Positions 2,243 through 58,807 are shown, counted from the stretch's first letter. The stretch is DNA of 64,000 nucleotides from Candidatus Campbellbacteria bacterium GW2011_OD1_34_28 (GCA_001029775.1 CP011215.1:274685-338684); one strand, 5' to 3'. Translations and numbers: made by a program. The notes: generated by a model not told the origin, from the sequence alone.

Positions 2243-4165
2243 ATGACTATATTTAATAAAACTTCAATTTTCGTAGTTCCAATAATTATTTTAATAATTG
2301 CTGGATTTTTTGTATTTAGCGGTGAGCAAAAACAAGAAAAAGAAAATAGTGAGGTGCCCGTAGAGAAGGTTACGAATGAAATCAGATTTATTAAAATAAG
2401 AGGGTGCCCCGACGATGCATACAAAGATATTGGCGTGGAGATTGTTAATCCTAAATATTTTATATGTAGAAGCTATCTCACAGACGGCACAAATGTGTAT
2501 TATCATGGCATACGGGCAGTAGCAATCCCTACTCAACCGCTTGCGCCAAGCTTTATTGCTACGTCTTCCCCAGACACAAGCGACAAAGCCCTTATGGAGT
2601 CAACAATAATCAAAGGAGCCGACCCAGAGACTTTTGAAATTATGTATTTCGATGAAAACCTACCTGTGGAGCAGCAAAACCACATGAATACATTCGCGAG
2701 AGATAAAGATTATTTGTATTGGGAAGGAAAGAGATTTGAGGGGCTTGATCCAAACACATTAGTTATATTGGGTAGAGGGTTTGTAAAAGACAAAGACGCA
2801 GTATATTTTTACTGGCGGAAACTTGAAGGATCGGATGCCACAACTTTTGAATTTTTGTGGGATGGGTTTGCGCGGGATAAAAATTTTGTGTACCGCAACA
2901 ATCCTCAACCTGAAATATTTAAAGGGGTTGACCCAGCTACATTTGAGAAAATTGACGATAATTATTTAAAAGACAAAAACGTCGTCTATTACCGACAGGA
3001 GAAAATTGGAGGATCCGACCCTGCAACTTTTGAGATTCTTTTAGGTTCCTATGCAAAAGATAAAAATAATGTGTATATGGATGGAAAGATAATCAATAAT
3101 GCTGACCCAGAGACCTTCTCTTTTTTGACGCACCCGTACCAGAGAGATGGTTATAATTATTTTTCGAAAGATAAAAACAATGTGTATTTTTCTGGAAATA
3201 TAATTTATGGAGCTGATTCAAACACATTCGAATTTATAGATTATCAATATATGAAAGATAAAAATGCTGTTTATTATAATAACGGCAGTAAAAAAATTGA
3301 TGGAGCCGACCCTAAAACATTTGAAGTGTTAGGAGGCGGGTATCTAAAAGACGGGAATTCTGTATGGATTTCTTACGGAGGCGAAGGAGGAGGTGTATCA
3401 TCTCATCGCAAATTAGAAAATGTAGATGCTCTAACTTTTGAGTTTATTGATCGTCAGTATGCACGCGATGTGACAGCAGTATATTGCTCTGGAGATGCTA
3501 TGGAGGGATTTGACTGGGGAAGCGTGGTAATACTTCAGGATAATTATATACGAGATAGCGAGCAAGTTTTCTTTAGATGTAAAAAAGTTGAAGGGGCGGA
3601 TGCAAAATCTTTTGAGGTGTTGGGCTATCAATATTCAAAGGATAAAATAGCAGTTTATTATATAGGCAAAAGAATTGATGGTGTGGATGCAGAGAGTTTT
3701 GAAAATCTGGCATGCAATTATTCAAAAGATAAAAATTCTGTATACAAGACTTCAGGGCAGACGATTTCCAAACTTGATAATTTTGATGCCTCCACATTTC
3801 GTATCATAGGCAATTGTAATCCGTCCGATAAAAATGGTGTGTATACAAACTCGGGAGAAAAAATAGCAGGTGCGGATCCTGGCACTTTCCAATTTTTAGG
3901 AGGAAGCTACAGTAAAGACAAGTATCGTGCCTATTGGAAGGCGATGCCTATTGCTAGCTCGGATACTGCAACATTCAAGTTTCTCAGTGGAGAATTTGCA
4001 AAAGATAACAATACCACATATTACAAAGGAGAAGTGTATGGTGATGAACTAAAGGCAATCTTGAGAGACACAGAAGAAGGGGGTGAACTTATGATCAACC
4101 CGACCCTTCCTCCATATGGACTTATTTACGAACTTAATAATATTGTGCCGACACCCGTTTATTAG
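2243..4165 (+). CDS. DKNYY-repeat protein, N-terminal membrane anchor
   Basis: More than 12 tandem ~35-aa repeats of the form KDKNxVYY...GADPxTFE, characteristic of the DKNYY family; N-terminal TM helix. Confidence 0.65.
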   Translation: MTIFNKTSIFVVPIIILIIAGFFVFSGEQKQEKENSEVPVEKVTNEIRFIKIRGCPDDAYKDIGVEIVNPKYFICRSYLTDGTNVYYHGIRAVAIPTQPLAPSFIATSSPDTSDKALMESTIIKGADPETFEIMYFDENLPVEQQNHMNTFARDKDYLYWEGKRFEGLDPNTLVILGRGFVKDKDAVYFYWRKLEGSDATTFEFLWDGFARDKNFVYRNNPQPEIFKGVDPATFEKIDDNYLKDKNVVYYRQEKIGGSDPATFEILLGSYAKDKNNVYMDGKIINNADPETFSFLTHPYQRDGYNYFSKDKNNVYFSGNIIYGADSNTFEFIDYQYMKDKNAVYYNNGSKKIDGADPKTFEVLGGGYLKDGNSVWISYGGEGGGVSSHRKLENVDALTFEFIDRQYARDVTAVYCSGDAMEGFDWGSVVILQDNYIRDSEQVFFRCKKVEGADAKSFEVLGYQYSKDKIAVYYIGKRIDGVDAESFENLACNYSKDKNSVYKTSGQTISKLDNFDASTFRIIGNCNPSDKNGVYTNSGEKIAGADPGTFQFLGGSYSKDKYRAYWKAMPIASSDTATFKFLSGEFAKDNNTTYYKGEVYGDELKAILRDTEEGGELMINPTLPPYGLIYELNNIVPTPVY

Positions 4166-4927: not shown

Positions 4928-6169
4928 ATGGTAGAAAAGAAGACAAATAAAATAAACAAAACAACAGATTGGGACGAAGTTACACCTTTGGCGGATCGGA
5001 TGCGTCCTGAAAAATTGGACGACTTTCTCGGACAAGAAGAAATCGTCGGAAAAGGAAAACTGCTTCGCCAAGCGATTGAATCGGACAACCTTCCCTCAAT
5101 AATTTTTTGGGGCCCTCCGGGAAGCGGAAAAACAACACTGGCTTTTGTGATTGCAAAAATTACTAAATCAGAATTTATAAAAATATCCGCCGTTTCCAGT
5201 GGGCTAGAAGACTTGCGAAGAAATATTGAAATTGCCGAGATGAACCGCCGACTAGGAAAGAGAACAATTCTTTTTATAGACGAGATTCATCGTTGGAACA
5301 AAACTCAACAAGACGCTCTTTTGCCCCAAATTGAAAACGGAACAATTATTTTAATCGGTGCGACGACAGAAAATCCCAGTTTTGAAATCCGCGGAGCTTT
5401 GCTTTCTCGTTGTCGTGTTTTTGTTTTGTCTCGGTTGGACAAAGAGCATTTAACACAGATTGTTAAAAAGGCACTCAAAGACAAAGAAAAAGGATTGGGC
5501 AAACTTAAAATCAAAGCAACAAACAAAGTGATTCAAAGTTTATCCCAGATGAGCAACGGCGATGCTCGTGTGGCTTTGAATGTTTTGGAATACGCCAGTG
5601 TGATGAGTGATGAAATAACTTTGGAAATTATCAAACAGGCTTTTCAAAAACCGCATCTCTTTTACGACAAAGAAGGAGAAGAACATCACAATATAATTTC
5701 GGCTTTGCACAAATCAATGCGAGGGTCGGACCCAGACGCTTCTTTGTATTGGTTGGTGAGAATGTTGGAAGGGGGAGAGAACCCTTTGTATGTTGCTCGT
5801 CGCTTGATCCGTTTTGCTTCGGAAGATATTGGGCTCGCAAATTCACGCGCTTTGGAACAAGCCGTCTCGGCTTATCAAGCTTGTCATTTTATTGGGATGC
5901 CAGAATGCGGTGTAAATCTGGCTCAGGCTGTTGTCTATATGGCAAAGTGTAAAAAATCTAACGAGCTGTACACGGCTTATGGTGAAGCAGTGGAAGATGT
6001 AAAAAAGTTTGGAAATCTGAAAGTTCCTTTGCATATTAGAAATGCCCCTACAAAATTGATGAAAAATTTGGGATATGGAAAAGGATACAAATATTCACCC
6101 GATTTTGACTACAAAGAAGATCAAGAATATTTCCCAAAAGAACTGAAAGGAAAAAAATATTTGAAGTAA
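4928..6169 (+). CDS. rarA: Replication-associated recombination protein A (AAA+ ATPase RarA/MgsA)
   Basis: Walker [12 protein letters not shown], Walker [13 protein letters not shown], sensor and C-terminal MgsA helical domain ([11 protein letters not shown]). Confidence 0.85.
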
Positions 6170-6180
6170 CTCACAAAACC

Positions 6181-6234
6181 CGTCTTTGCGAACGAAGTGA
6201 AGCAATCCACGTCGTCTCGTCCGTCTTTGCGAGT
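6181..6234. repeat. Repeat family A (cgtctttgcgaacgaagtgaagcaatcca)
   Basis: Copies at 602-635, 6181-6209 (+ partial 6222-6234, 6355-6390) and inverted or partial copies at 17207-17290. Confidence 0.65.
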
Positions 6235-6478
6235 GTAACGAAGCCCTGCCTCTTTTCTGAAAGAAAAGCAACGACACGGCAGGCAGGAATCCAGAAAAAT
6301 AACGAAGCCAAAAACACAAACAAAGACGGATTTTGCTTCGCAAAATCCGCCCACTTTCGTCTTTGCATCTACCGTCGTCTTTGCGCCACCCCACCCATCT
6401 TTAAAACGGCTACGCTCCCCAAAAAGGACCGTAGCCGTTTGGTTTTTGCACCGATAAGGGTTAAAATAAAAGGTAATT

Positions 6479-7930
6479 ATGTTTGAACAACAATTTAAAA
6501 ATATTGATAATATTCTTCACACCGATTCTGGGTGCGGAACAGAACTTGACTATGTTGAGCAGACATCGTGGATTCTTTTTCTTAAATATTTAGACGATTT
6601 AGAGGAGACCAAAAAAACCGAAGCGGAATTGGCGGGACAGAAATATACATATATTTTGTCTTCAGAATATTGTTGGGATAATTGGGCTTGCCCAAAGGAT
6701 AACAAGGGAAAAATAGACCACAACAAAGCTCTAGATGGAGATGATTTAAAAGATTTTGTTGATCATCAATTATTTCCTTACCTTAAAAAATTTAAAGCGG
6801 AAGATTCTAATACTATTGAATATAAAATAGGGGAAATTTTTTCTGAATTAAAAAATAAAATTTCTAGTGGTTATAAGCTTAGACAGATTTTAAATGCTGT
6901 GGATGATATGCATTTTCGTCTATATGAAGAAAAACACGAACTCTCTCATCTTTATGAATCTAAAATTAAAAATATGGGAAATGCGGGGAGAAATGGTGGA
7001 GAATATTACACTCCGCGACCATTGATAAAAACTATTGTAAAAGTAATTGATCCTAAAATTGGGGATACTATTTATGACGGAGCCTGTGGTTCTGCCGGCT
7101 TTCTTGTGGAGGCTTATAATTATCTAACAGAAAATAAATCCAAACTTTCTTCTAAAGAAATGGATACCTTACAAAACAAAACTTTTTTTGGGAAAGAAAT
7201 AAAATCTTTGGCATATATTATTGGGATAATGAATATGATTTTGCATGGAGTGGAAGCTCCTAATATAAAACATGTAAATACTCTGGCGGAAAATATCAAT
7301 GATATTCAAGAGAAAGACAGATATAAAATAATTTTAGCCAATCCTCCTTTTGGAGCTGGAATTGGAAGAGAAATTCAACAAAATTTTCCTATTAAGACAG
7401 GCGAAACAGCTTTCTTGTTTTTACAACATTTTATAAAAATTTTGAAAGCAGGAGGGCGGGCTGGAATTGTTATCAAAAATACTTTTCTCTCTAATACAGA
7501 CAATGCGAGTGTATCACTTCGTAAACTTTTACTGGAAAATTGCAACTTGCACACTGTCTTAGATCTTCCTGGAGGTGCTTTTCAAGGGGCGGGAGTAAAA
7601 ACTGTTGTTTTGTTTTTTGAAAAGGGGACACCAACAAAGAAAATATGGTTTTATCAACTAAATCTCGCTCGCAATCTTGGTAAGGGTAATCCTTTGAGTG
7701 AAAATGACTTGGTGGAATTTGTAAAATTACAGAAAACTAAAGCAGATAGTGAAAATTCTTGGAGTATAGATATAAAAGATGTTGATCAAAAAACTTTTGA
7801 TTTATCTGTAAAAAATCCGAATAAAAATGAGGAAGTTTCTTTGCGTGAGCCGAAAGAGATTTTGGAGGAGATCTCAGCGCTTGATAGAGAAAGTGAAAAA
7901 ATTTTGAAAAATATTAAAATTTTAATATAA
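6479..7930 (+). CDS. hsdM: Type I restriction-modification N6-adenine DNA methyltransferase subunit
   Basis: HsdM N-domain plus motif I DGACGSAGFL plus motif IV NPPFG. Confidence 0.9.
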   Translation: MFEQQFKNIDNILHTDSGCGTELDYVEQTSWILFLKYLDDLEETKKTEAELAGQKYTYILSSEYCWDNWACPKDNKGKIDHNKALDGDDLKDFVDHQLFPYLKKFKAEDSNTIEYKIGEIFSELKNKISSGYKLRQILNAVDDMHFRLYEEKHELSHLYESKIKNMGNAGRNGGEYYTPRPLIKTIVKVIDPKIGDTIYDGACGSAGFLVEAYNYLTENKSKLSSKEMDTLQNKTFFGKEIKSLAYIIGIMNMILHGVEAPNIKHVNTLAENINDIQEKDRYKIILANPPFGAGIGREIQQNFPIKTGETAFLFLQHFIKILKAGGRAGIVIKNTFLSNTDNASVSLRKLLLENCNLHTVLDLPGGAFQGAGVKTVVLFFEKGTPTKKIWFYQLNLARNLGKGNPLSENDLVEFVKLQKTKADSENSWSIDIKDVDQKTFDLSVKNPNKNEEVSLREPKEILEEISALDRESEKILKNIKILI

Positions 7931-7936
7931 AAAATT

Positions 7937-8560
7937 ATGGAATATAAAATAATGAATATTACGCATTACAATGATCCTTCACAATATAACGGGCGCAATA
8001 TGATTTCCGGAATTTGCCCATTTTGTAATCAGTCTAGCGGGTTTAAAATTAATGGACAAAAGACTGGGCATACAGTTCCATTGAAATGTGATAATTGCGA
8101 AAAAAATGTCATTTGGGATTTTGATGAAAGAATTGTCTTGCCTGTTGCAAAACCAAATTCACTGATTGGATTGCCAGAAAATGTGGACCATTATTATCAA
8201 GAGGCATTGAATTGCATTGCGGCACTTGCGCCAAATGGTGCGGCAACTTTGTTTAGAAAATTGATCCATCAAGTCGGAATACATTACAATGTTGCAAAAA
8301 TCAATGACAGTATGTCCCTAATGGGCATCGTTGAAAAACTTGAAAGCGAAGGTCATATAAATAAAAAACTTGTAGAGGCATTAAGGCGAGTCAAGGATCT
8401 TGGAAATGACGGAGCGCATATAAATGAAAATGAGCCAGATATGGAACAAATTTATGTGGTAAAAAACTTGATTGATAGTTTTTTGCAGGCAACAGTTTTG
8501 CAGGATGCGAATATAGAAAAATATGATCAATCTAAAGAAGAAAATAAAAGTAAAAAATGA
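7937..8560 (+). CDS. DUF4145-like protein with N-terminal Zn-ribbon, embedded in the R-M operon
   Basis: CPFC...CDNC zinc ribbon; C-terminal ALRRVKDLGNDGAHINE...VKNLIDSFL resembles DUF4145; 7-bp gap to hsdM and 4-bp overlap with the next ORF. Confidence 0.6.
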   Translation: MEYKIMNITHYNDPSQYNGRNMISGICPFCNQSSGFKINGQKTGHTVPLKCDNCEKNVIWDFDERIVLPVAKPNSLIGLPENVDHYYQEALNCIAALAPNGAATLFRKLIHQVGIHYNVAKINDSMSLMGIVEKLESEGHINKKLVEALRRVKDLGNDGAHINENEPDMEQIYVVKNLIDSFLQATVLQDANIEKYDQSKEENKSKK

Positions 8561-9339
8561 AACTTGTTTTTATAGATGAATTCAAACCAAATAGTGATAA
8601 ATTAAATTCAGATAGACTGTATGGCATTTCGGTTGTTGTTTTAGATTCTGCGTACTATACGAATTACAAAAATGGTTTTGAAAAAGCATTTACTAAATTA
8701 GGATGGTCTAGAGAAAAAGAATTAAAAGGGCGCTATGTATATTCAAGTAAAATTTTTGAAGATATTACAATAGATCAAAGGCTCGGTTTTGCAGAAGAGC
8801 TTTTCAAATTATCTCTTTCGGAAAGCGGGAAGAAAAAACGCATTTCTGTTTTCATTGGTATAGATTCGTTTGATAAAAAAACTGGAGAATCAGAGGTATA
8901 TGTCAATCTATTATGCAAAGTGTTAAATAAAATTGGTAGGCCGTCTAATAAAAAACAAGACAAGAATTTGATTGCCTTCTTTCTGGATAATAATGACGAA
9001 GTGACACGTAAAATAAAAGAATCGGATTTTTATAGTGTATTATCGGAAAAGTTGCATAAAAATTGGATTATTTTAGAAAAACCATTTTTTGTTTCTTCAT
9101 CTAATTTATTGCCAGGTATAATCTTCGCAGATTTTATATCCTATTTTCATCAGAATTTTATAGATTCAAATAATTTTCATGCAAAAATTAAAGAACGATT
9201 TCTAAATCTTTTAGATAAAAGCGAAAAATATATTGATGATAAAGAAAAGGAAGAATTAAAAAAATATATAACAAATAGTAGAAAAAAAGAACAAGCTGCA
9301 AGAATTTTAGAAGTTTTAAGAGACATTGTATATGTATAA
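8557..9339 (+). CDS. Hypothetical protein, weakly DUF3800-like, embedded in the R-M operon
   Basis: N-terminal MKLVFIDE and C-terminal IIFADFISYF motifs reminiscent of DUF3800; overlaps both neighbours, consistent with translational coupling. Confidence 0.35.
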   Translation: MKLVFIDEFKPNSDKLNSDRLYGISVVVLDSAYYTNYKNGFEKAFTKLGWSREKELKGRYVYSSKIFEDITIDQRLGFAEELFKLSLSESGKKKRISVFIGIDSFDKKTGESEVYVNLLCKVLNKIGRPSNKKQDKNLIAFFLDNNDEVTRKIKESDFYSVLSEKLHKNWIILEKPFFVSSSNLLPGIIFADFISYFHQNFIDSNNFHAKIKERFLNLLDKSEKYIDDKEKEELKKYITNSRKKEQAARILEVLRDIVYV

Positions 9340-10444
9340 TTGGCAAACAAAAAAACTTGGCGAGGTTTGTGAAATCAAGACTGGCAAGAAAGACGTTAAT
9401 CAGGGAAATCCTAATGGAAAGTATCCTTTTTTTACTTGTGCAAAAGAGCATACTTACAGTGATGTATATTCTTTTGATACAGAAGCTATATTAATCGCTG
9501 GTAATGGGGATGTTGGATCACTTAATTATTGCAATGGGAAATTTGAAGCATATCAGCGAACCTACGTTCTTTCTGAATTCAAAGAAATTGATGCCAAGTA
9601 TTTATTATATGTTTTAGATGGATCACTAAAGGATGTTGTTTCAAAACAAAAATTAGGAAACACAATGCCCTATATAAAACTTGGAATGTTAGCTGAATTT
9701 TTAATCCCCATTCCACCTCTTTCTGAACAAAAACGCATTGTAAAAGTTTTGGATGAGATTTTTGAGAATATTGAAAAGGCAAAGAGAAATGCGGAAAAGA
9801 ATTTGAAAAATTCCAAAGAGATTTTTGAATCGTATTTGCAGAGTGTTTTTGAAAATCCGGAGAAGGATTGGGAAGAAAAAACGTTGGATGAAGTTTGTGA
9901 AATAAGTTCTAAATTAGTTGATCCACGAAAGCCAGAGTTTCTTGATTTGATCCATGTTGGAGCTGGAAATATGGAAACTAAATCTGAAAAATTAATTGAT
10001 TTGAAAACTGCGAGAGAAGAAAAACTCATATCGGGAAAATTTCTTTTTGATGAATCAATGGTTCTTTATAGCAAAATTCGTCCATATCTAATGAAAGTAG
10101 CAAGGCCGAATTTTTCAGGTTTGTGCAGCGCCGACATATATCCACTTGTACCTCGAAAAAATTTGAACAGAGATTATTTATTCCATCTATTATTAACATC
10201 AATGTTTACAGAGTTTGCGATAAAGGGATCAGCGAGAGCGGGTATGCCAAAAGTAAATCGGGAGCATCTTTTTTCATTCAATTTTTTCTTGCCACCAATT
10301 ACTAAACAAAAAGCCATCGTTAAAAAGCTGGATGTGCTGGCAGGGGAGACCAAGAAGCTAGAGGCGATTTATAAACAAAAACTGGCTGATCTGGATGAGC
10401 TCAAAAAATCAGTGTTAAAAAAAGCTTTTAGTGGGGAGTTGTAG
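9326..10444 (+). CDS. hsdS: Type I R-M specificity subunit
   Basis: Two target-recognition domains separated and followed by conserved LPPLSEQKRIV / LPPITKQKAIV coiled-coil repeats. Confidence 0.85.
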   Translation: MYMYNWQTKKLGEVCEIKTGKKDVNQGNPNGKYPFFTCAKEHTYSDVYSFDTEAILIAGNGDVGSLNYCNGKFEAYQRTYVLSEFKEIDAKYLLYVLDGSLKDVVSKQKLGNTMPYIKLGMLAEFLIPIPPLSEQKRIVKVLDEIFENIEKAKRNAEKNLKNSKEIFESYLQSVFENPEKDWEEKTLDEVCEISSKLVDPRKPEFLDLIHVGAGNMETKSEKLIDLKTAREEKLISGKFLFDESMVLYSKIRPYLMKVARPNFSGLCSADIYPLVPRKNLNRDYLFHLLLTSMFTEFAIKGSARAGMPKVNREHLFSFNFFLPPITKQKAIVKKLDVLAGETKKLEAIYKQKLADLDELKKSVLKKAFSGEL

Positions 10445-10576
10445 TGTTGTTTTTATCAACATTTTTCCTATATTTTTTAATAGAAAACTTGTATAATTTA
10501 AGTAGCTACTCGAAACTTTTTATGGATTATGTATTTACAAATTATAAATAATGTATTATTATAACCATAACAAACA

Positions 10577-11068
10577 ATGACTAATACTACAAAATTAAAT
10601 GAGAAAAAATACAAAAATGCAATTTTGTATTTTATAAAATATTGCAACAACAATTATCTTGGTGATACTAAGTTAAATAAATTGCTTTACTATTTGGACT
10701 TTATAAATTACAGGGACCGAAAAGAATCTGTAACAGGTGATTTTTATATACATAACCATTTTGGACCAACTCCAAGCGAGGCGACTGTCTTTTTGTCTGA
10801 TTTGGTTGAAAATCACGATATAGAAGTAAAGAAGAAAGATTTTAAGGATTCCCACACTACTTCTTTTGTTTTAAAAACAGAACCCGATGAAAGCGTGTTT
10901 TTAGAAGAAGAAAAAATATTGTTGAAAAATATTTGTAAAGAATTTTTAGACTGGTCAACGCCTAAAATAGTTGAACAAACTCACCTAGAAGCTCCTTGGT
11001 TTTATTCTAAACCATTTCAAAAAGTTGATTACAATTACTCGCGTGATATAGAATTTTTTGCTGAATAG
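10577..11068 (+). CDS. Panacea/DUF4065-domain protein (putative PanA-type antitoxin)
   Basis: KLNKLLYYLDF...FGPTPSEA pattern typical of DUF4065 (GepA/SocA-like). Confidence 0.6.
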   Translation: MTNTTKLNEKKYKNAILYFIKYCNNNYLGDTKLNKLLYYLDFINYRDRKESVTGDFYIHNHFGPTPSEATVFLSDLVENHDIEVKKKDFKDSHTTSFVLKTEPDESVFLEEEKILLKNICKEFLDWSTPKIVEQTHLEAPWFYSKPFQKVDYNYSRDIEFFAE

Positions 11069-11077
11069 TTTTTGCTT

Positions 11078-11470
11078 ATGACTGAATGGAATTATATTGA
11101 GACAGAATATTTTGTGAGATCTTGTGAGGAATATGGTATTTCTCAAGACATTAAGGATTTTATAGAAGAGTGGGCAAAATCTGTCAGAAGACAAATAACT
11201 CCATCAAACAAAAGACCTTTTATATCACCCAATAATATATTTGAAATTTGGGATGCTAGAATTCCTAATCCTGATGCTAACAAAGGAAAGAGTGGGGGTT
11301 ATCGCCTTGTGTATTATATTCATTTATCTGAAAGAAATTTATTTGTTGATTTAATGGTAGATAGAAAAGATTTAGATTATAAAGGTTCTAACGGAAAAAA
11401 ACAAAAGAAATGGGATGGGCATCTTGCTGATTTGAAGAAAGAATTATTGCAAAAATATGATAATTGTTGA
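11078..11470 (+). CDS. RelE/ParE-superfamily toxin-like protein
   Basis: KGKSGGYRLVYYIH...DLMVDRKD matches the RelE/ParE core (GGYRviYy...K); 10 bp downstream of the Panacea gene. Confidence 0.5.
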   Translation: MTEWNYIETEYFVRSCEEYGISQDIKDFIEEWAKSVRRQITPSNKRPFISPNNIFEIWDARIPNPDANKGKSGGYRLVYYIHLSERNLFVDLMVDRKDLDYKGSNGKKQKKWDGHLADLKKELLQKYDNC

Positions 11471-11551
11471 GTTTATAAATACCGTCTAATAAGGACGGTA
11501 TTTTTAATTTTAGTCTTTATTATATTGACCATAAGTGATATATTTAATTTT

Positions 11552-13924
11552 ATGAACGAATCAGAAACACGAGCAGAATATATAGATCCAAAGCTTAAAG
11601 AGGCTGGTTGGGGTGAGATGGAAGACTCTAAAATTTTGAGAGAGTTTGTTTTTACTGATGGAAAAATTCAAGCTGGTGGAATTCGTGGGAAACAAGAAAT
11701 CGCTGATTATATTTTGGTTTATAAAAATGTAAAATTGGCTGTAATTGAGGCAAAAAAAGAGGGTCTATATGCGACTGAGGGAGTAGCCCAAGCCAAAACT
11801 TATGCTCAAAAATTGAATATTAAATATACTTATTCAACCAATGGTAAGGAAATTTATGAAATTTCAATGGGTGGTGGTTGTGAAGATTATGTTGATAAAT
11901 TTCCGACTCCTGAAGAATTATGGAACAAAACTTTTTCAGACCAGAACGAATGGAAAGACAAATTTAATCAAATTTTGTTTGAAGACGGAGGTGGTAAAAG
12001 ACCAAGATATTATCAAGAAAACGCTATCAATAAAACTCTTGATGCCATTGCAGAAGAGAAAAACAGAATCCTTCTAACTCTTGCAACAGGAACAGGAAAA
12101 ACATTTATTGCTTTTCAAATTGTTTGGAAACTTTTTCAATCACGATGGAATTTAAACAGGGATGGGGCTAGGCGACCGAGAATCTTATTTTTGGCGGACA
12201 GAAATATTTTGGCCGACCAAGCTTTTAATGCTTTTTCCTCTTTTCCTGATGATGTTAAAGTTCGCATCAATCCATTGGATATTCGGAGACATGGTGGAGT
12301 ACCGATGAGTGGAAGTGTTTTCTTTACTATTTTTCAAACTTTTATGAGCGGGTCAAATAATACTCCTTATTTCGGAGAATATCCGAAAGATTTTTTTGAT
12401 TTAATCATTATCGATGAGTGTCATAGGGGCGGGGCTAATGATGAAAGTAATTGGCGAGGAATTTTGGAATATTTTTCACCTGCTGTGCAAATTGGTTTGA
12501 CTGCTACCCCTAAAAGAAAAGATAATATTGATACTTATAAATATTTTGGTGAACCGATTTATACTTATTCTCTCAAAGAGGGTGTGAGCGACGGTTTTTT
12601 GACACCATTTAAAGTAAAAAGAATTCAAACTACTTTAGATGATTATGTTTATACATCTGACGATGAAATTATTGAGGGCGAAGTGGAAGAGGGAAAAGTT
12701 TATGAAGAGCCGGATTTTAATAAAATTATTGTTATCAAAGAGCGCGAAGCTAAAAGAGTGCGAGTTGTTTTGGATGAAATAGATCAAAATGAAAAAACTA
12801 TTATTTTTTGTGCTACTCAGGATCATGCTGCAGCGGTGCGAGATTTAATAAATCAAATGAAAGAAAGTACTGACCCGAGTTATTGTGTTCGTGTGACGGC
12901 AAACGATGGAGCTAGGGGAGAACAAGCTTTGCGAGAATTCCAAGATAATGAAAAAACTATTCCTACTATTTTGACGACCTCACAAAAACTTTCTACTGGC
13001 GTTGATGCTAGAAATGTCAGAAATATTGTGTTGATGCGACCAGTAAATTCTATGGTGGAATTTAAACAAATTGTAGGTCGTGGAACAAGACTTTTTGACG
13101 GTAAAGAGTTTTTTACAATTTATGATTTCGTAGATGCGTATAAGCATTTTTCAGATCCTGAATGGGATGGCGAGCCGATTGAGGAGGTTTGTTCAAAATG
13201 CGAGCAAAATCCTTGTGTCTGTGAAGTAAAACCACCCAAAGAATGTTCTGTTTGTGGACAACGTCCTTGCGTATGTGAAAAACCATCTAAAATATGTTCT
13301 GTGTGTGGAAAAGATCCTTGCGAGTGTGAAAATCCGCCAAAAAGAAAATTGAAAATAAAATTAAGAGACGGAAAGGAAAGAGAAATTCAACATATGATCT
13401 CAACTTCTTTTTGGGGAGCTAATGGAAGACCTCTTTCGTCAGAAGAATTTATAACTAAAATATTTGGTGTGTTACCAGATTTATTTAAGAATGAGGAAGA
13501 ATTAAGGAAAATATGGTCAAATCCAGTAACAAGAAAAGAGTTTCTTGAAAGGTTGTTTGATTTAGGGATTGATTTAGAGCAATTAGATAATATTAAAAAA
13601 GTAGTTAATGCAGAAAATTGTGATTTATTTGATGTGCTTTCTTACCTTGCGTATAGTAAGCCATTGATTACTAGAGAGGAAAGAATTGATAAAACTAAAG
13701 AAAATATTTTTGAAGGAGTTGATGAAAAAAATAGAGAATTCTTAGATTTTGTTATTTCAAAATATAAAGAAAAAGGAGTTGAAGAGTTGGGTGAGGAAAA
13801 ATTACCAATTTTATTAAACTTAAAATATAACTCTCCTGCTGACGCTATAAGTATTCTTGGTGATGTTAATTTAATCCGTTCTACATTTTTTGATTTTCAA
13901 AAAAGACTATACACAAAAATATAA
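11552..13924 (+). CDS. hsdR: Type I restriction enzyme R subunit (EcoEI-like, short form)
   Basis: HSDR_N nuclease (EYIDPKL...), SF2 helicase motifs (LATGTGKT, DECHRG), EcoEI_R_C-like C-terminus. Contains a 3x tandem Cys-rich repeat at 13190-13345. Confidence 0.85.
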   Translation: MNESETRAEYIDPKLKEAGWGEMEDSKILREFVFTDGKIQAGGIRGKQEIADYILVYKNVKLAVIEAKKEGLYATEGVAQAKTYAQKLNIKYTYSTNGKEIYEISMGGGCEDYVDKFPTPEELWNKTFSDQNEWKDKFNQILFEDGGGKRPRYYQENAINKTLDAIAEEKNRILLTLATGTGKTFIAFQIVWKLFQSRWNLNRDGARRPRILFLADRNILADQAFNAFSSFPDDVKVRINPLDIRRHGGVPMSGSVFFTIFQTFMSGSNNTPYFGEYPKDFFDLIIIDECHRGGANDESNWRGILEYFSPAVQIGLTATPKRKDNIDTYKYFGEPIYTYSLKEGVSDGFLTPFKVKRIQTTLDDYVYTSDDEIIEGEVEEGKVYEEPDFNKIIVIKEREAKRVRVVLDEIDQNEKTIIFCATQDHAAAVRDLINQMKESTDPSYCVRVTANDGARGEQALREFQDNEKTIPTILTTSQKLSTGVDARNVRNIVLMRPVNSMVEFKQIVGRGTRLFDGKEFFTIYDFVDAYKHFSDPEWDGEPIEEVCSKCEQNPCVCEVKPPKECSVCGQRPCVCEKPSKICSVCGKDPCECENPPKRKLKIKLRDGKEREIQHMISTSFWGANGRPLSSEEFITKIFGVLPDLFKNEEELRKIWSNPVTRKEFLERLFDLGIDLEQLDNIKKVVNAENCDLFDVLSYLAYSKPLITREERIDKTKENIFEGVDEKNREFLDFVISKYKEKGVEELGEEKLPILLNLKYNSPADAISILGDVNLIRSTFFDFQKRLYTKI

Positions 13925-14081
13925 TTCTTAATTTAATAAATATTTTATCTTCCAAACCCATCACAAAAAATAGTGGAAAAACAGTGAAGGGTAGGAGAGA
14001 CTTTTCAATACCCAAAAACAAAACCATGATACAATTATGTTGATAAAGTGTTTTATTTTTCTTTGAATTACCGGCGTGGAT

Positions 14082-14128
14082 TCCTGCCTGCCGTGTCGTT
14101 GCTTTTCTTTCAGAAAAGAGGCAGGGCT
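14082..14128. repeat. Dispersed hairpin repeat family B (cctgcctgccgtgtcgttgcttttctttcagaaaagaggcagg)
   Basis: Near-identical copies at 6244-6288 (inverted), 14082-14128, 30610-30662 and 58765-58807. Confidence 0.7.
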
Positions 14129-14315
14129 TCGTTATTCCGCTCCACTCCATTCCTCGCAAAGACGACGAGGGCGGGAAATTTGCGAACCTGGCTGCCGGCA
14201 GGCAGGCTCTCCGCAATGTTACTTATTTATTTAAAAAGCTACTTTTCAGTAGCCTTTTAAATTTCAGTATTGCCAGAGGGTGGGATTCGAACGGAACTTT
14301 TTAAAACAAAGCAGT

Positions 14316-14753
14316 TTATTTTCTATAAACTAAAAAATGAGGTAATTTGTCCATATCTTTATATACAAACATTTCATAATTTGCTCGCCTAGCAGTTTTT
14401 GAAAGTTTGTAATTTGAAAGGTTCTTTTTTGGAACAAAAGGATAAAATTTTATTTCTTGTTTTTCTTCTCCCTTCTCAGACCATTTAAAATTTAAAAACA
14501 AAGACGGTGTCATGTACCCTGATTTTAAAACTTTGTTCATAATTTGCCATCCAGCACCAAAAACAACAGATTTTGGTTTACTTTGGTTTGTTTTAACTTG
14601 AGCACGAAAAGAACATCCTGTGCACTGAACATCATAAAGAGGATAGTTTGGAGGAAGTTTCATTAACATCTTCCCACAATTTGGACATGGAACAATATTG
14701 ACGATTTCTTGTTCGCCAGAATTACCAGATTCTTTTTTACTTTTTTTTAGCAT
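14316..14753 (-). CDS. Hypothetical Zn-ribbon protein
   Basis: CPNC...CTGC; no further motif recognised. Confidence 0.4.
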   Translation of the reverse strand: MLKKSKKESGNSGEQEIVNIVPCPNCGKMLMKLPPNYPLYDVQCTGCSFRAQVKTNQSKPKSVVFGAGWQIMNKVLKSGYMTPSLFLNFKWSEKGEEKQEIKFYPFVPKKNLSNYKLSKTARRANYEMFVYKDMDKLPHFLVYRK

Positions 14754-14788
14754 TTTTTAATTTTTATAGATAAATAATAATTTTTTGG

Positions 14789-15196
14789 TTATTCAAATTT
14801 AATTTGAAAACTGTACATCCCCATAGAACAAAGACCTTGGATTTCTTCACCTGCTTTTTGTGGCGGAACTTCTATCTCTGTTACAGCAGTAGGGGGGAGA
14901 TTTTTTTGATAATTTAAATCTGGAATAACAAGAGCCGAAGAACAATCAAAAGTACTCTTTGTCTCTACTTTTATTATCGTTGGCATATCTGCTTTTGCGA
15001 TTGTCATTTGGGGAAAATATCCGCCTCTTGCATCAATGGTGATTATTTGTTTTCCGTCTACAACACTGACATTACTTTTTACTTCTTTTATTTCTTCTTT
15101 TTTTGTGTCGTCTGAAACATCTTTATTTCTAGAGTACACAAAAGACGCTCCGATCAAGACGACTATTATTAAGATTGCGATTGTTGTTGGTTTCAT
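14789..15196 (-). CDS. Membrane-anchored cupredoxin-like protein (putative)
   Basis: N-terminal TM helix, beta-rich C-terminal domain ending with Cys/Met (GLCSMGMY); adjacent to a heavy-metal-associated domain transporter. Confidence 0.4.
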   Translation of the reverse strand: MKPTTIAILIIVVLIGASFVYSRNKDVSDDTKKEEIKEVKSNVSVVDGKQIITIDARGGYFPQMTIAKADMPTIIKVETKSTFDCSSALVIPDLNYQKNLPPTAVTEIEVPPQKAGEEIQGLCSMGMYSFQIKFE

Positions 15197-17150: not shown

Positions 17151-17359
17151 CGGCGTGGGCCGGACTGATTGCGATCAGTCCGGTCCTTTAAAATTGTGGG
17201 TCGGTCAAAGATTCGCAAAGACGACGTGGATTGCTTCGCTTAAGCTCGCAAAGACGGGTGGGGGCCGTCTTCGCGAACGCAGTGACGCGATCCATAATCA
17301 TTGTTTAAATTTTAAAATTTGGAGTCACGTCTTTTTATATGTTATTCTTATAAGCATAT

Positions 17360-30545: not shown

Positions 30546-30775
30546 TATTTATTTAACTTCAAGTAGTAAGGTGTAAGTAATAAGCAGAGAAAAGAATTTA
30601 GAAAATAGACCTGCCTGCCGTGTCGCTGCTTTTCTTTCAGAAAAGAGGCAGGATTTAGAATTTACCCCGTTTTTCTATAAGCTATCAGTTTTTCTGTTGA
30701 CTTCTTTTGTCTAAAAAACTATACTCGCTTTAGGAATTTTGAAATTCAAATCTCTAATCAAAAAGAGGTGCTTGT

Positions 30776-34925: not shown

Positions 34926-35185
34926 ACTTAAAAGATAAAAGATGACCACAGCAAGACCGTGGTCATTTTTTGTTTGACTTTATGTTGTGTTTGAGTATTA
35001 TGTACACATAAATGTTCTTGATTAAATCTTGAAAAGAGATGCATTTGTAAGTATTTTCCGGCGTGGAAGACATTGGTTTTCCGGAAAACCAGAGTCAAAA
35101 CTTTCAGATGTTTAGCGAACGAACCGGTGTGAGGACACTGTCGCTGGTCTTTTCTCTCCTCATCTCTTTTCATCCTTGTTGTGTT

Positions 35186-35264
35186 GGGGCGTAGCTCAAT
35201 CTCTCTCTTGGCAGAGCGCCTGTTTGAGAACAGGAAGATGGTCGGTTCGAATCCGTCCGCTCCA
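35186..35264 (+). tRNA. tRNA-like element / probable degenerate tRNA (Ala-type GGGGC acceptor with G3:U70)
   Basis: GGGGCGTAGCTCAA[tctctctctt]GGCAGAGCGCCTGTTTGAGAACAGG...GGTTCGAATCC...CGCTCCA. The D-loop is ~16 nt, the T-stem has a mismatch and the anticodon loop reads GAG. Followed by a terminator at 35275-35300. Confidence 0.3.
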
Positions 35265-35299
35265 ATCAAAAATAAAAGTCCGCCTGTGGCGGACTTTTT

Positions 35300-58764: not shown

Positions 58765-58807
58765 CCTGCCTGCCGTGTCGTTGCTCTTCTTTCAGAAAAG
58801 AGGCAGG
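58765..58807. repeat. Repeat family B copy
   Basis: cctgcctgccgtgtcgttgctcttctttcagaaaagaggcagg. Confidence 0.7.

Follow-up and report, generated by a model that had tools for sequence, protein, structure and literature searches.

Probable second-line defence modules in two slots of a type I restriction-modification operon from a Campbellbacteria genome

The type I restriction-modification (R-M) operon considered here occupies positions 6,479 to 13,924 of a stretch of 64,000 nucleotides (nt), hereafter the window, from the genome of Candidatus Campbellbacteria bacterium GW2011_OD1_34_28 (CP011215.1:274685-338684). All seven genes in 6479-13924 share one orientation, and the three that make up the R-M system, hsdM, hsdS, and hsdR, are separated by four accessory genes, lodged in two gaps, or slots. 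The locus is probably (we would say with about 75% confidence) a layered defence, an R-M scaffold whose two slots hold independently acquired second-line modules. EcoAI-type restriction would constitute the first line. In the first slot (hsdM|hsdS), open reading frame (ORF) 2 would provide, if its homology to RAZR is a guide, an RNase that remains latent until bound by a ring-forming phage protein and then cuts RNA and aborts the infection, while the second gene of the slot, ORF3, would provide an RNase H-like nuclease of the DUF3800 family. Both would be translationally coupled into the hsdM-hsdS message. The second slot (hsdS|hsdR) would hold an autonomous type II toxin-antitoxin (TA) cassette consisting of PanA (ORF5) and a toxin of the RelE/HigB fold (ORF6), with a promoter and a terminator of its own. 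With activities and triggers such as these, the proteins would act as successive layers of defence instead of as one machine. While the activities, the triggers, and the layered action are inferred, the comparisons do show the gene content, the homologies and folds, the varying occupancy of the slots in relatives, and the independence of the modules from one another.

The existence of the slots is evident from the closest relatives of the operon. The census drew on metagenomic loci, 80 in all, in which HsdM shares 70-88% identity with that of the window; hsdS and hsdR were then located, and a slot was counted as filled when the gap between the genes was greater than 500 nt. By this count, the hsdM|hsdS slot is filled in 22 of 56 loci (39%) and the hsdS|hsdR slot in 19 of 44 (43%), and 25 of 44 loci have one slot or both filled. 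The compact form of the operon has 4-nt overlaps at both junctions. The cargo, nearly all of which lies in the orientation of the operon, was examined in 67 ORFs. RhuM (7), Fic (4), IS200 transposase (3), and canonical DUF3800 (2) are found there, along with YhcG/DUF1016 nucleases, ORF6N/Bro-N/AntA, 23S_rRNA_IVP, Schlafen AlbA_2, DUF2130, PDDEXK_3, subtilase with AAA, UvrD, RelA_SpoT toxSAS, PIN, Shedu SduA_C, AbiEii-like AAA_21, and RES, and many of the cargo ORFs have matches among the candidate defence families of PADLOC (PDC-S05, S23, S33). The window's own four accessory genes appear in none of the 80 loci. An earlier reading of the window, made without database searches (the sequence-only reading), had suggested a mobile or exchangeable defence cassette, and the variable cargo of both slots in close relatives shows that the slots, at any rate, are exchangeable.

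Genes embedded in R-M operons are familiar from PrrC in EcoprrI, the rlo genes in the hsd loci of Campylobacter, and TgvAB in Vibrio VPI-2. Surveying BREX, DISARM, and type I R-M, Payne et al. (2024) counted 17,432 embedded genes from 3,231 families and found PrrC to be almost exclusive to type I R-M (bioRxiv 10.1101/2024.01.29.577857); TgvAB of Vibrio is another embedded case (PMC11411939). The layout has thus already been described, and the present locus is a further example of it, from the Candidate Phyla Radiation (CPR), in which every component is of a known family. As in the described cases, its accessory genes lie between hsdM, hsdS, and hsdR in the orientation of the operon, and the cargo varies among related operons. 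It differs in that a RAZR-like gene, a divergent DUF3800 gene, and a PanAT pair fill both slots, an arrangement unseen in the 80 closest relatives, and in that the host is a CPR bacterium, from a group thinly covered by RefSeq-based surveys. It shows clearly, in this little-studied radiation, a type I R-M operon with two slots in which second-line defences can land, and the census extends the idea of "guilt by embedding" to CPR genomes, yielding a list of candidate defence genes. What is possibly new is modest: a subfamily of DUF3800 linked to R-M genes, and the slot census for CPR genomes.

The scaffold itself is represented by all three subunits. HsdM matches Pfam N6_Mtase (212 bits) and HsdM_N and, over its full length, PADLOC MTase_I (530 bits). 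HsdS matches Pfam Methylase_S in two stretches (140 bits) and PADLOC Specificity_I (317 bits). HsdR scores 851 bits (cut-off 550) with the NCBIfam equivalog restrict_EcoAI (EcoAI/FtnUII), over model positions 1-767 of 768, with further Pfam matches to ResIII, Helicase_C, and EcoEI_R_C. Judging from these profiles, the operon encodes a complete R-M system of the EcoAI family (type IB) that is probably functional. Because the alignment with the NCBIfam model begins at residue 10, the true start of hsdR is probably the ATG at 11552. The overlap of hsdS with ORF3, 14 nt as annotated here, is 8 nt if hsdS starts at the ATG at 9332. HsdR also contains, between its helicase and EcoEI_R_C domains, three tandem Cys-rich units (CxxCxxxPCxCE; window 13180-13329), two of them encoded by a 51-nt direct repeat of 80% identity (13228-13278 and 13279-13329). 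These units may constitute a zinc-binding insertion.

ORF2 has a characterised counterpart. PD-T7-4, since renamed RAZR, combines a zinc-finger domain with an RNase domain of the DUF4145/HEPN type; the protein assembles around phage proteins that form rings (the portal and Gp77), cuts single-stranded RNA, and aborts infection (PMC13017515). As early as 2013, DUF4145 was listed as a HEPN domain occurring in fusion with zinc ribbons and "in operon with R-M" (PMC3710099). ORF2 matches Pfam DUF4145 at 35.4 bits (cut-off 23.1) and the PADLOC model for PD-T7-4 with an E-value of 2.9e-10, over positions 41-196. Its sole solved relative is RAZR itself (PDB 9y9c, E 4e-4), an entry whose 24 identical chains mark the 24-mer assembly of that protein. 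The two share an N-terminal Cys4 zinc ribbon, a linker, a C-terminal DUF4145 HEPN domain, and the catalytic His, and they are of similar length (207 amino acids for ORF2, 219 for RAZR). Four cysteines (C27, C30, C51, and C54) and the His of the GNDGAH motif (H161) are invariant across 18 relatives of ORF2. Of the catalytic pair of E. coli RAZR, R146 and H154, the His is kept as H161, and the position of the Arg is occupied by Lys in ORF2 and by K or R across its family. These alignments make ORF2 homologous to an abortive-infection RNase that has already been named and characterised. The differences are the weak similarity to the solved chain, the Lys in place of the catalytic Arg, and the setting of the gene, which is embedded in an hsd operon and translationally coupled there, whereas RAZR stands alone. 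Translation of ORF2 may start at the ATG at 7952; the database entry that matches it exactly is 202 amino acids long.

ORF2 travels with hsdMSR sometimes. One relative lies in an operon of the order hsdM-DUF4145-hsdS-Fic-hsdR (locus L013). In another (L016), where the protein is 86% identical to ORF2, the order is hsdM-DUF4145-CD-NTase-155 aa-hsdS-93 aa-hsdR. A third relative (L014) sits beside N6_N4_Mtase and an SF2 helicase, a different R-M-like pair, within an island that has an integrase, and a fourth (L015) is solitary, following a housekeeping gene. The two genes between the DUF4145 gene and hsdS in the second of these operons (L016:6712-8065) form a minimal CBASS-like pair: the cyclase matches the PADLOC model for oligonucleotide cyclases (CBASS-type CD-NTase) at 300 bits, and its 155-residue partner has a weak match to Hydrolase-TM. 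Scans of viral contigs found no relatives of the ORF2, ORF3, or ORF6 families, and a tblastn search of plasmids gave a single weak DUF4145 match for ORF2 and zero matches for ORF3.

Direct searches of Pfam, PADLOC, and NCBIfam with ORF3 found no match, DUF3800 itself being absent from the Pfam results at an E-value of 0.1 or better. The identity of the protein was reached by a deep profile search, a scan of its whole family, and fold comparison. A word-indexed search found relatives in 16 clusters; when 1.84 billion representatives were searched with a profile, the number rose to 111. D7, E55, D144, and D192 do not vary in a 63-member alignment of the family, and E8 hardly does. Of the 63 relatives detected by profile, 26 match Pfam DUF3800 (PF12686), with a best E-value of 7e-8, and no other family recurs. 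The fold is like that of RNase HII/H2, with a DE motif near the N-terminus and an Asp near the C-terminus. ORF3 is by these comparisons a DUF3800 protein of a divergent subfamily, too divergent for a direct Pfam match; its fold resembles that of RNase H2, and its acidic residues form a set of the DEDD type. It was right to call the protein DUF3800-like from the start, since PF12686 matches by way of intermediates and the RNase H2 fold is in line with the published link between that fold and DUF3800: RNase H2 structures serve as templates for the DUF3800 protein of type VII retrons, which has a DEED/DEDD site (PMC7736814), and the TPR-DUF3800 proteins next to Cas12a2/a3 have an RNase H fold (PMC10910872, PMC13594972). 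ORF3 and the retron protein find the same best template (3puf), and both are missing the Q of QxxD. Unlike the DUF3800 proteins of retrons and Cas12a2/a3 loci, ORF3 has no reverse transcriptase, TPR, or non-coding RNA partner and is linked instead to N6-adenine R-M methyltransferases. An Rfam scan of 6000-14800 found no DUF3800-associated RNA motif, nor any other match at an E-value of 1 or better. Either as an effector or as an R-M-dependent guard, ORF3 is probably a nuclease.

The genomic contexts of ORF3 relatives were sampled in 9 loci from the family of 111 representatives, two of which (L003 and L012) were uninformative; the related-locus search with the family alignment (A1) contributed 4 genome loci. 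In every informative unique locus (7 of 7, the window included), the gene directly adjoins one encoding a PF02384-type methyltransferase, the relatives being 34-72% identical to ORF3. The R-M systems concerned are of several types. Where X stands for the ORF3 relative, the order is hsdM-X-hsdS, a type IB arrangement, in L001/L002; it is hsdR fragment-hsdM-X-hsdS in L004 and hsdM-hsdS-X-hsdR, a type IC arrangement with an EcoR124-type HsdR, in L010. In two loci from Saccharibacteria (L009 and L011), the relative comes after M/S-fusion genes, and in L097/L098 it comes directly after a type IIG-like enzyme of 888 amino acids (Eco57I/MmeI_Mtase/TaqI_C). A DUF4145 gene is absent from all these other loci. 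Alone among the accessory genes, ORF3 keeps company with R-M genes, and with a wider range of them than hsdMSR. The thought that ORF3 might be a substitute nuclease where hsdR is missing from M-X-S loci was rejected, as a fragment of hsdR lies upstream in L004, and hsdR is present in both L009 and L010. Two side observations concern these loci. The type IIG-like enzyme (L097:3106-5772) has a faint match of 30 residues to HSDR_N, at its N-terminus only. The Saccharibacteria loci share a conserved gene that overlaps the end of the ORF3 relative (L009:8749-9462 and L011:2795-3577; 32% identity, E 6e-31), and its product carries IVD[YF]RN[EQ]xLGHA, a HEPN-like Rx5H motif. It was considered as a HEPN protein and rejected as evidence, because hhalign gave a probability of 0.2% against the ORF2/DUF4145 family, and matches to PDB, Pfam, and PADLOC were absent.

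The main rival reading of a single component takes ORF3 as a guard, a retaliation nuclease dependent on R-M in the manner of PrrC. The methyltransferase/specificity complex would hold it latent, or be monitored by it, and it would act once an anti-restriction protein of a phage had put the R-M enzyme out of action. This is possible, if doubtful. It would account for relatives adjoining a PF02384-type methyltransferase in all seven informative loci, across differing types of R-M, and ORF3 is translationally coupled to hsdS. Moreover, the host system does without ORF3 (0 of 80 close HsdM relatives have it), and the same asymmetry is reported for PrrC (bioRxiv 10.1101/2024.01.29.577857). The likeness to PrrC, however, is one of genomic behaviour only: the two have no similarity in sequence or domains, and the domains of PrrC (an ABC-ATPase-like N-domain and an anticodon-nuclease C-domain) were found by Pfam, PADLOC, and NCBIfam searches in none of the four accessory ORFs. 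Besides, the sample is small, 9 loci of a family with 111 representatives, and canonical DUF3800 occurs in many other contexts, retrons and Cas12a2/a3 loci for example. A broader proposition, that the whole ORF3 subfamily is a dedicated partner of N6-adenine R-M methyltransferases in CPR (types IB and IC, M/S fusions, and type IIG-like enzymes), an RNase H-like nuclease that guards the R-M complex against phage anti-restriction as PrrC does or brings it a second nucleolytic activity, we regard as unlikely. If true, it would provide the first defined functional context for DUF3800, a widespread domain linked to defence but without known biochemistry. The R-M-linked subfamily is in any event a practical lead, and if the dependence on the methyltransferase is real, it would offer a tractable route to DUF3800 function.

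In the second slot, ORF5 matches Pfam SocA_Panacea at 58.4 bits (cut-off 25.7). ORF6 is below the threshold of the Pfam RelE/ParE clan (PF06296, 16.6 bits against 27), and fold comparison assigns it the RelE/ParE (RelE/HigB) fold. It is probably a ribosome-dependent mRNase toxin. Members of its family are 130 amino acids in length, with an N-terminal helical extension and a GKSGGYR motif, and the search for them returned Patescibacteria only. An alternative TTG start for the toxin gene lies at 11072. The pair resembles the PanAT systems (PMC8832971, PMC10440598) in having a stand-alone Panacea antitoxin with the toxin gene within 10 nt, in being kept together across species and in varied contexts, and in that ORF6 has the RelE/ParE fold of ParE, which is listed among the toxin partners of PanA (PMC8832971). 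It differs in the family of the putative toxin, which falls under the Pfam RelE threshold and was found in Patescibacteria only.

In 4 of 4 loci with ORF6 relatives, panA is directly upstream, separated by 4-17 nt. The neighbourhoods of the four pairs are unrelated to one another (a LexA-methylase, a PD-(D/E)XK gene, a Schlafen-type helicase, and a type ISP enzyme), and in none of the four is the pair surrounded by an hsdMSR operon. Just before panA in the window and in two of the related loci (L005 and L008) is an element resembling a promoter (TT(T/C)ACA-N17-TATTAT, TG upstream), and in the window the toxin gene is followed by a hairpin with a U-tract (-16.3 kcal/mol, z -5.2), as stable as which there was none among 200 shuffled sequences. 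Because its relatives lie outside hsdMSR, and because of the conserved promoter-like element and the terminator, the PanA-toxin pair is best regarded as an autonomous cassette. The single 7.4-kb transcription unit proposed in the sequence-only reading is not supported, given a promoter-like element before panA and a strong terminator before hsdR.

That reading had also asked whether the inserted genes travel with hsdMSR, and the related loci give a divided answer: ORF3 goes with R-M genes, ORF2 goes with hsdMSR sometimes and is found elsewhere in L014 and L015, and PanA-ORF6 does so in 0 of 4 cases. Relatives of ORF2 can be found away from type I operons, and those of PanA-ORF6 were always outside hsdMSR, so that by the refuting condition of the sequence-only reading itself the new integrated system that it implied is not supported. 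ORF2 is a homologue of RAZR/PD-T7-4 (PMC13017515), and embedding of this kind has been described (bioRxiv 10.1101/2024.01.29.577857, PMC11411939, PMC3710099). Much else in the first account is sound. The ORF map agrees almost base for base with its gene order, in which hsdM-hsdS-hsdR is interrupted twice, the overlaps of ORF2 with ORF3 (4 nt) and of ORF3 with hsdS (14 nt) are present, and its four guesses at domains (DUF4145, DUF3800, Panacea, and RelE-like) hold, those of DUF3800 and RelE by fold and transitive evidence.

Several considerations weigh against a layered defence built of independent modules. That ORF2 and ORF3 are translationally coupled to hsdS could mean that they are tied to it by stoichiometry or function, not that they are mere hitch-hikers. 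ORF3 adjoins R-M methyltransferases almost exclusively (7 of 7), from which it would seem that this gene, if none of the others, depends in part on the host system. The replacement of the catalytic Arg146 of RAZR by Lys makes it uncertain that ORF2 is competent as an RNase. The exact combination of cargo occurs once, none of the 80 closest HsdM relatives sharing it. Finally, the census rests on ORF calls and sequence searches made for this analysis.

Table 1. Features of the R-M operon and of the repeats on either side of it (window coordinates)
Feature	Position	Strand	Description
Left dispersed intergenic repeat	6236-6293	+	58 nt, perfect inverted match to right copy
hsdM	6479-7930	+	type I (family IB) N6-adenine methyltransferase subunit, 483 amino acids
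ORF2	7937-8560	+	Cys4 Zn-ribbon and DUF4145/HEPN, RAZR (PD-T7-4) homologue by alignment; 6-nt gap after hsdM
ORF3	8557-9339	+	divergent DUF3800, RNase H2-like putative nuclease, 260 amino acids; 4-nt overlap with ORF2
hsdS	9326-10444	+	specificity subunit, two target-recognition domains, 372 amino acids; 14-nt overlap with ORF3
Promoter-like element	10534-10562	+	of the PanA-toxin module; TTTACA-N17-TATTAT, TG upstream
ORF5 (PanA)	10577-11068	+	stand-alone Panacea-domain antitoxin, 163 amino acids; 132-nt gap after hsdS
ORF6 (PanT)	11078-11470	+	RelE/HigB-fold putative toxin, 130 amino acids; 9-nt gap after ORF5
Terminator-like hairpin and U-tract	11477-11514	+	between toxin gene and hsdR
hsdR	11525-13924	+	EcoAI-family restriction/translocase subunit; 54-nt gap after ORF6
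Right dispersed intergenic repeat	14077-14134	-	58 nt, perfect inverted match to left copy

The repeats that flank the operon were at first taken as marks of a mobile cassette, and in its fullest form this idea would make the whole block of 7.8 kb a discrete mobile element, bounded by the 58-nt inverted repeats and by an att remnant derived from a tRNA. We consider this improbable. The inverted match between the two sides is indeed perfect, but the 43-nt core of the repeat (CCTGCCTGCCGTGTCGYTGCTYTTCTTTCAGAAAAGAGGCAGG) is an intergenic hairpin-like element, resembling a repetitive extragenic palindromic (REP) or terminator element, that is dispersed across the window (6245-6287, 14083-14125, 30610-30652, and 58765-58807, the copies being 98-100% identical). 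For this reason the 58-nt repeats were rejected as terminal inverted repeats of a transposon. The fragment of 21 nt at 14272-14292, which had been likened to the 3' end of tRNA-Ser, is present and matches the T-arm of the window's tRNA-Ser at 17 of 18 nt; the acceptor stem, however, differs, and a classical attL/attR pair with that tRNA would need the fragment on the other side. Neither the ORF map nor domain searches revealed a recombinase gene, transposase or integrase, within or beside the block. With the core dispersed, no recombinase, and a tRNA-like fragment that is not a copy of tRNA-Ser, the repeats lend little support to a discrete mobile cassette. In favour of mobility, the G+C content inside the block (0.28-0.36) is somewhat below that immediately upstream (0.41-0.42), and related operons have differing neighbourhoods, from which it follows that the operon family moves. 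A second repeated motif, G+C-rich (CGTCTTTGCGA), has 8 copies where 0.8 are expected. All of them are clustered between genes in the first 17 kb of the window (at about 600, 6181-6386, 14154, and 17213-17276), and none is in the other 47 kb.

Two further alternatives to a scaffold with independent modules concern which genes belong together. ORF2 and ORF3, which overlap by 4 nt (ATGA), might be a dedicated module of two genes, HEPN and RNase H-like, lodged in the hsdM|hsdS slot. A HEPN-like partner of ORF3 might also be seen in the conserved RNxxLGH (Rx5H) gene that comes after the ORF3 relative in the two Saccharibacteria loci, were it not for its hhalign probability of 0.2% against the ORF2 family and its lack of a Pfam or PADLOC match. 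An ORF3-type neighbour is absent from 4 of 4 loci with ORF2 relatives, and all 7 other ORF3 loci are without a DUF4145 gene, making such a module quite improbable. As for the seven genes forming one integrated system, read from a single transcript, with the accessory proteins as subunits or regulators of the restriction enzyme, the comparative data have largely refuted it, and we hold it to be very improbable: the tight, co-oriented packing from hsdM to hsdS (a gap of 6 nt, then overlaps of 4 and 14 nt) speaks for it, but ORF2 relatives are found outside type I operons or in hsd operons with other partners, PanA-ORF6 relatives are never in hsdMSR (4 loci), the block has an internal promoter-like element and terminator, and the cargo of both slots varies in close relatives.

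Some neighbouring features deserve mention. To the right of the block, at 14316-14753 on the minus strand, is a gene encoding a DpnI-like protein of 145 amino acids (Pfam DpnI, 39 bits, over profile positions 30-151 of 183; PADLOC mREase_II). The match is to the catalytic part of DpnI only; the protein has an N-terminal CxxC...CxxC and is without the C-terminal winged-helix domain. A methyl-directed nuclease of this sort beside a type I system that writes m6A would stretch the defence cluster to about 14.8 kb. Farther along (35176-35267, plus strand), ARAGORN calls a tRNA of 92 nt with a four-base anticodon (cttg), and the Rfam tRNA model matches 35185-35265 at 40 bits; this tRNA may contain an intron or be otherwise unusual. 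Upstream of the operon (2243-4165, plus strand) is a gene for a protein of 640 amino acids that has an N-terminal membrane anchor and many degenerate repeats with motifs of the type DKN.VYY.

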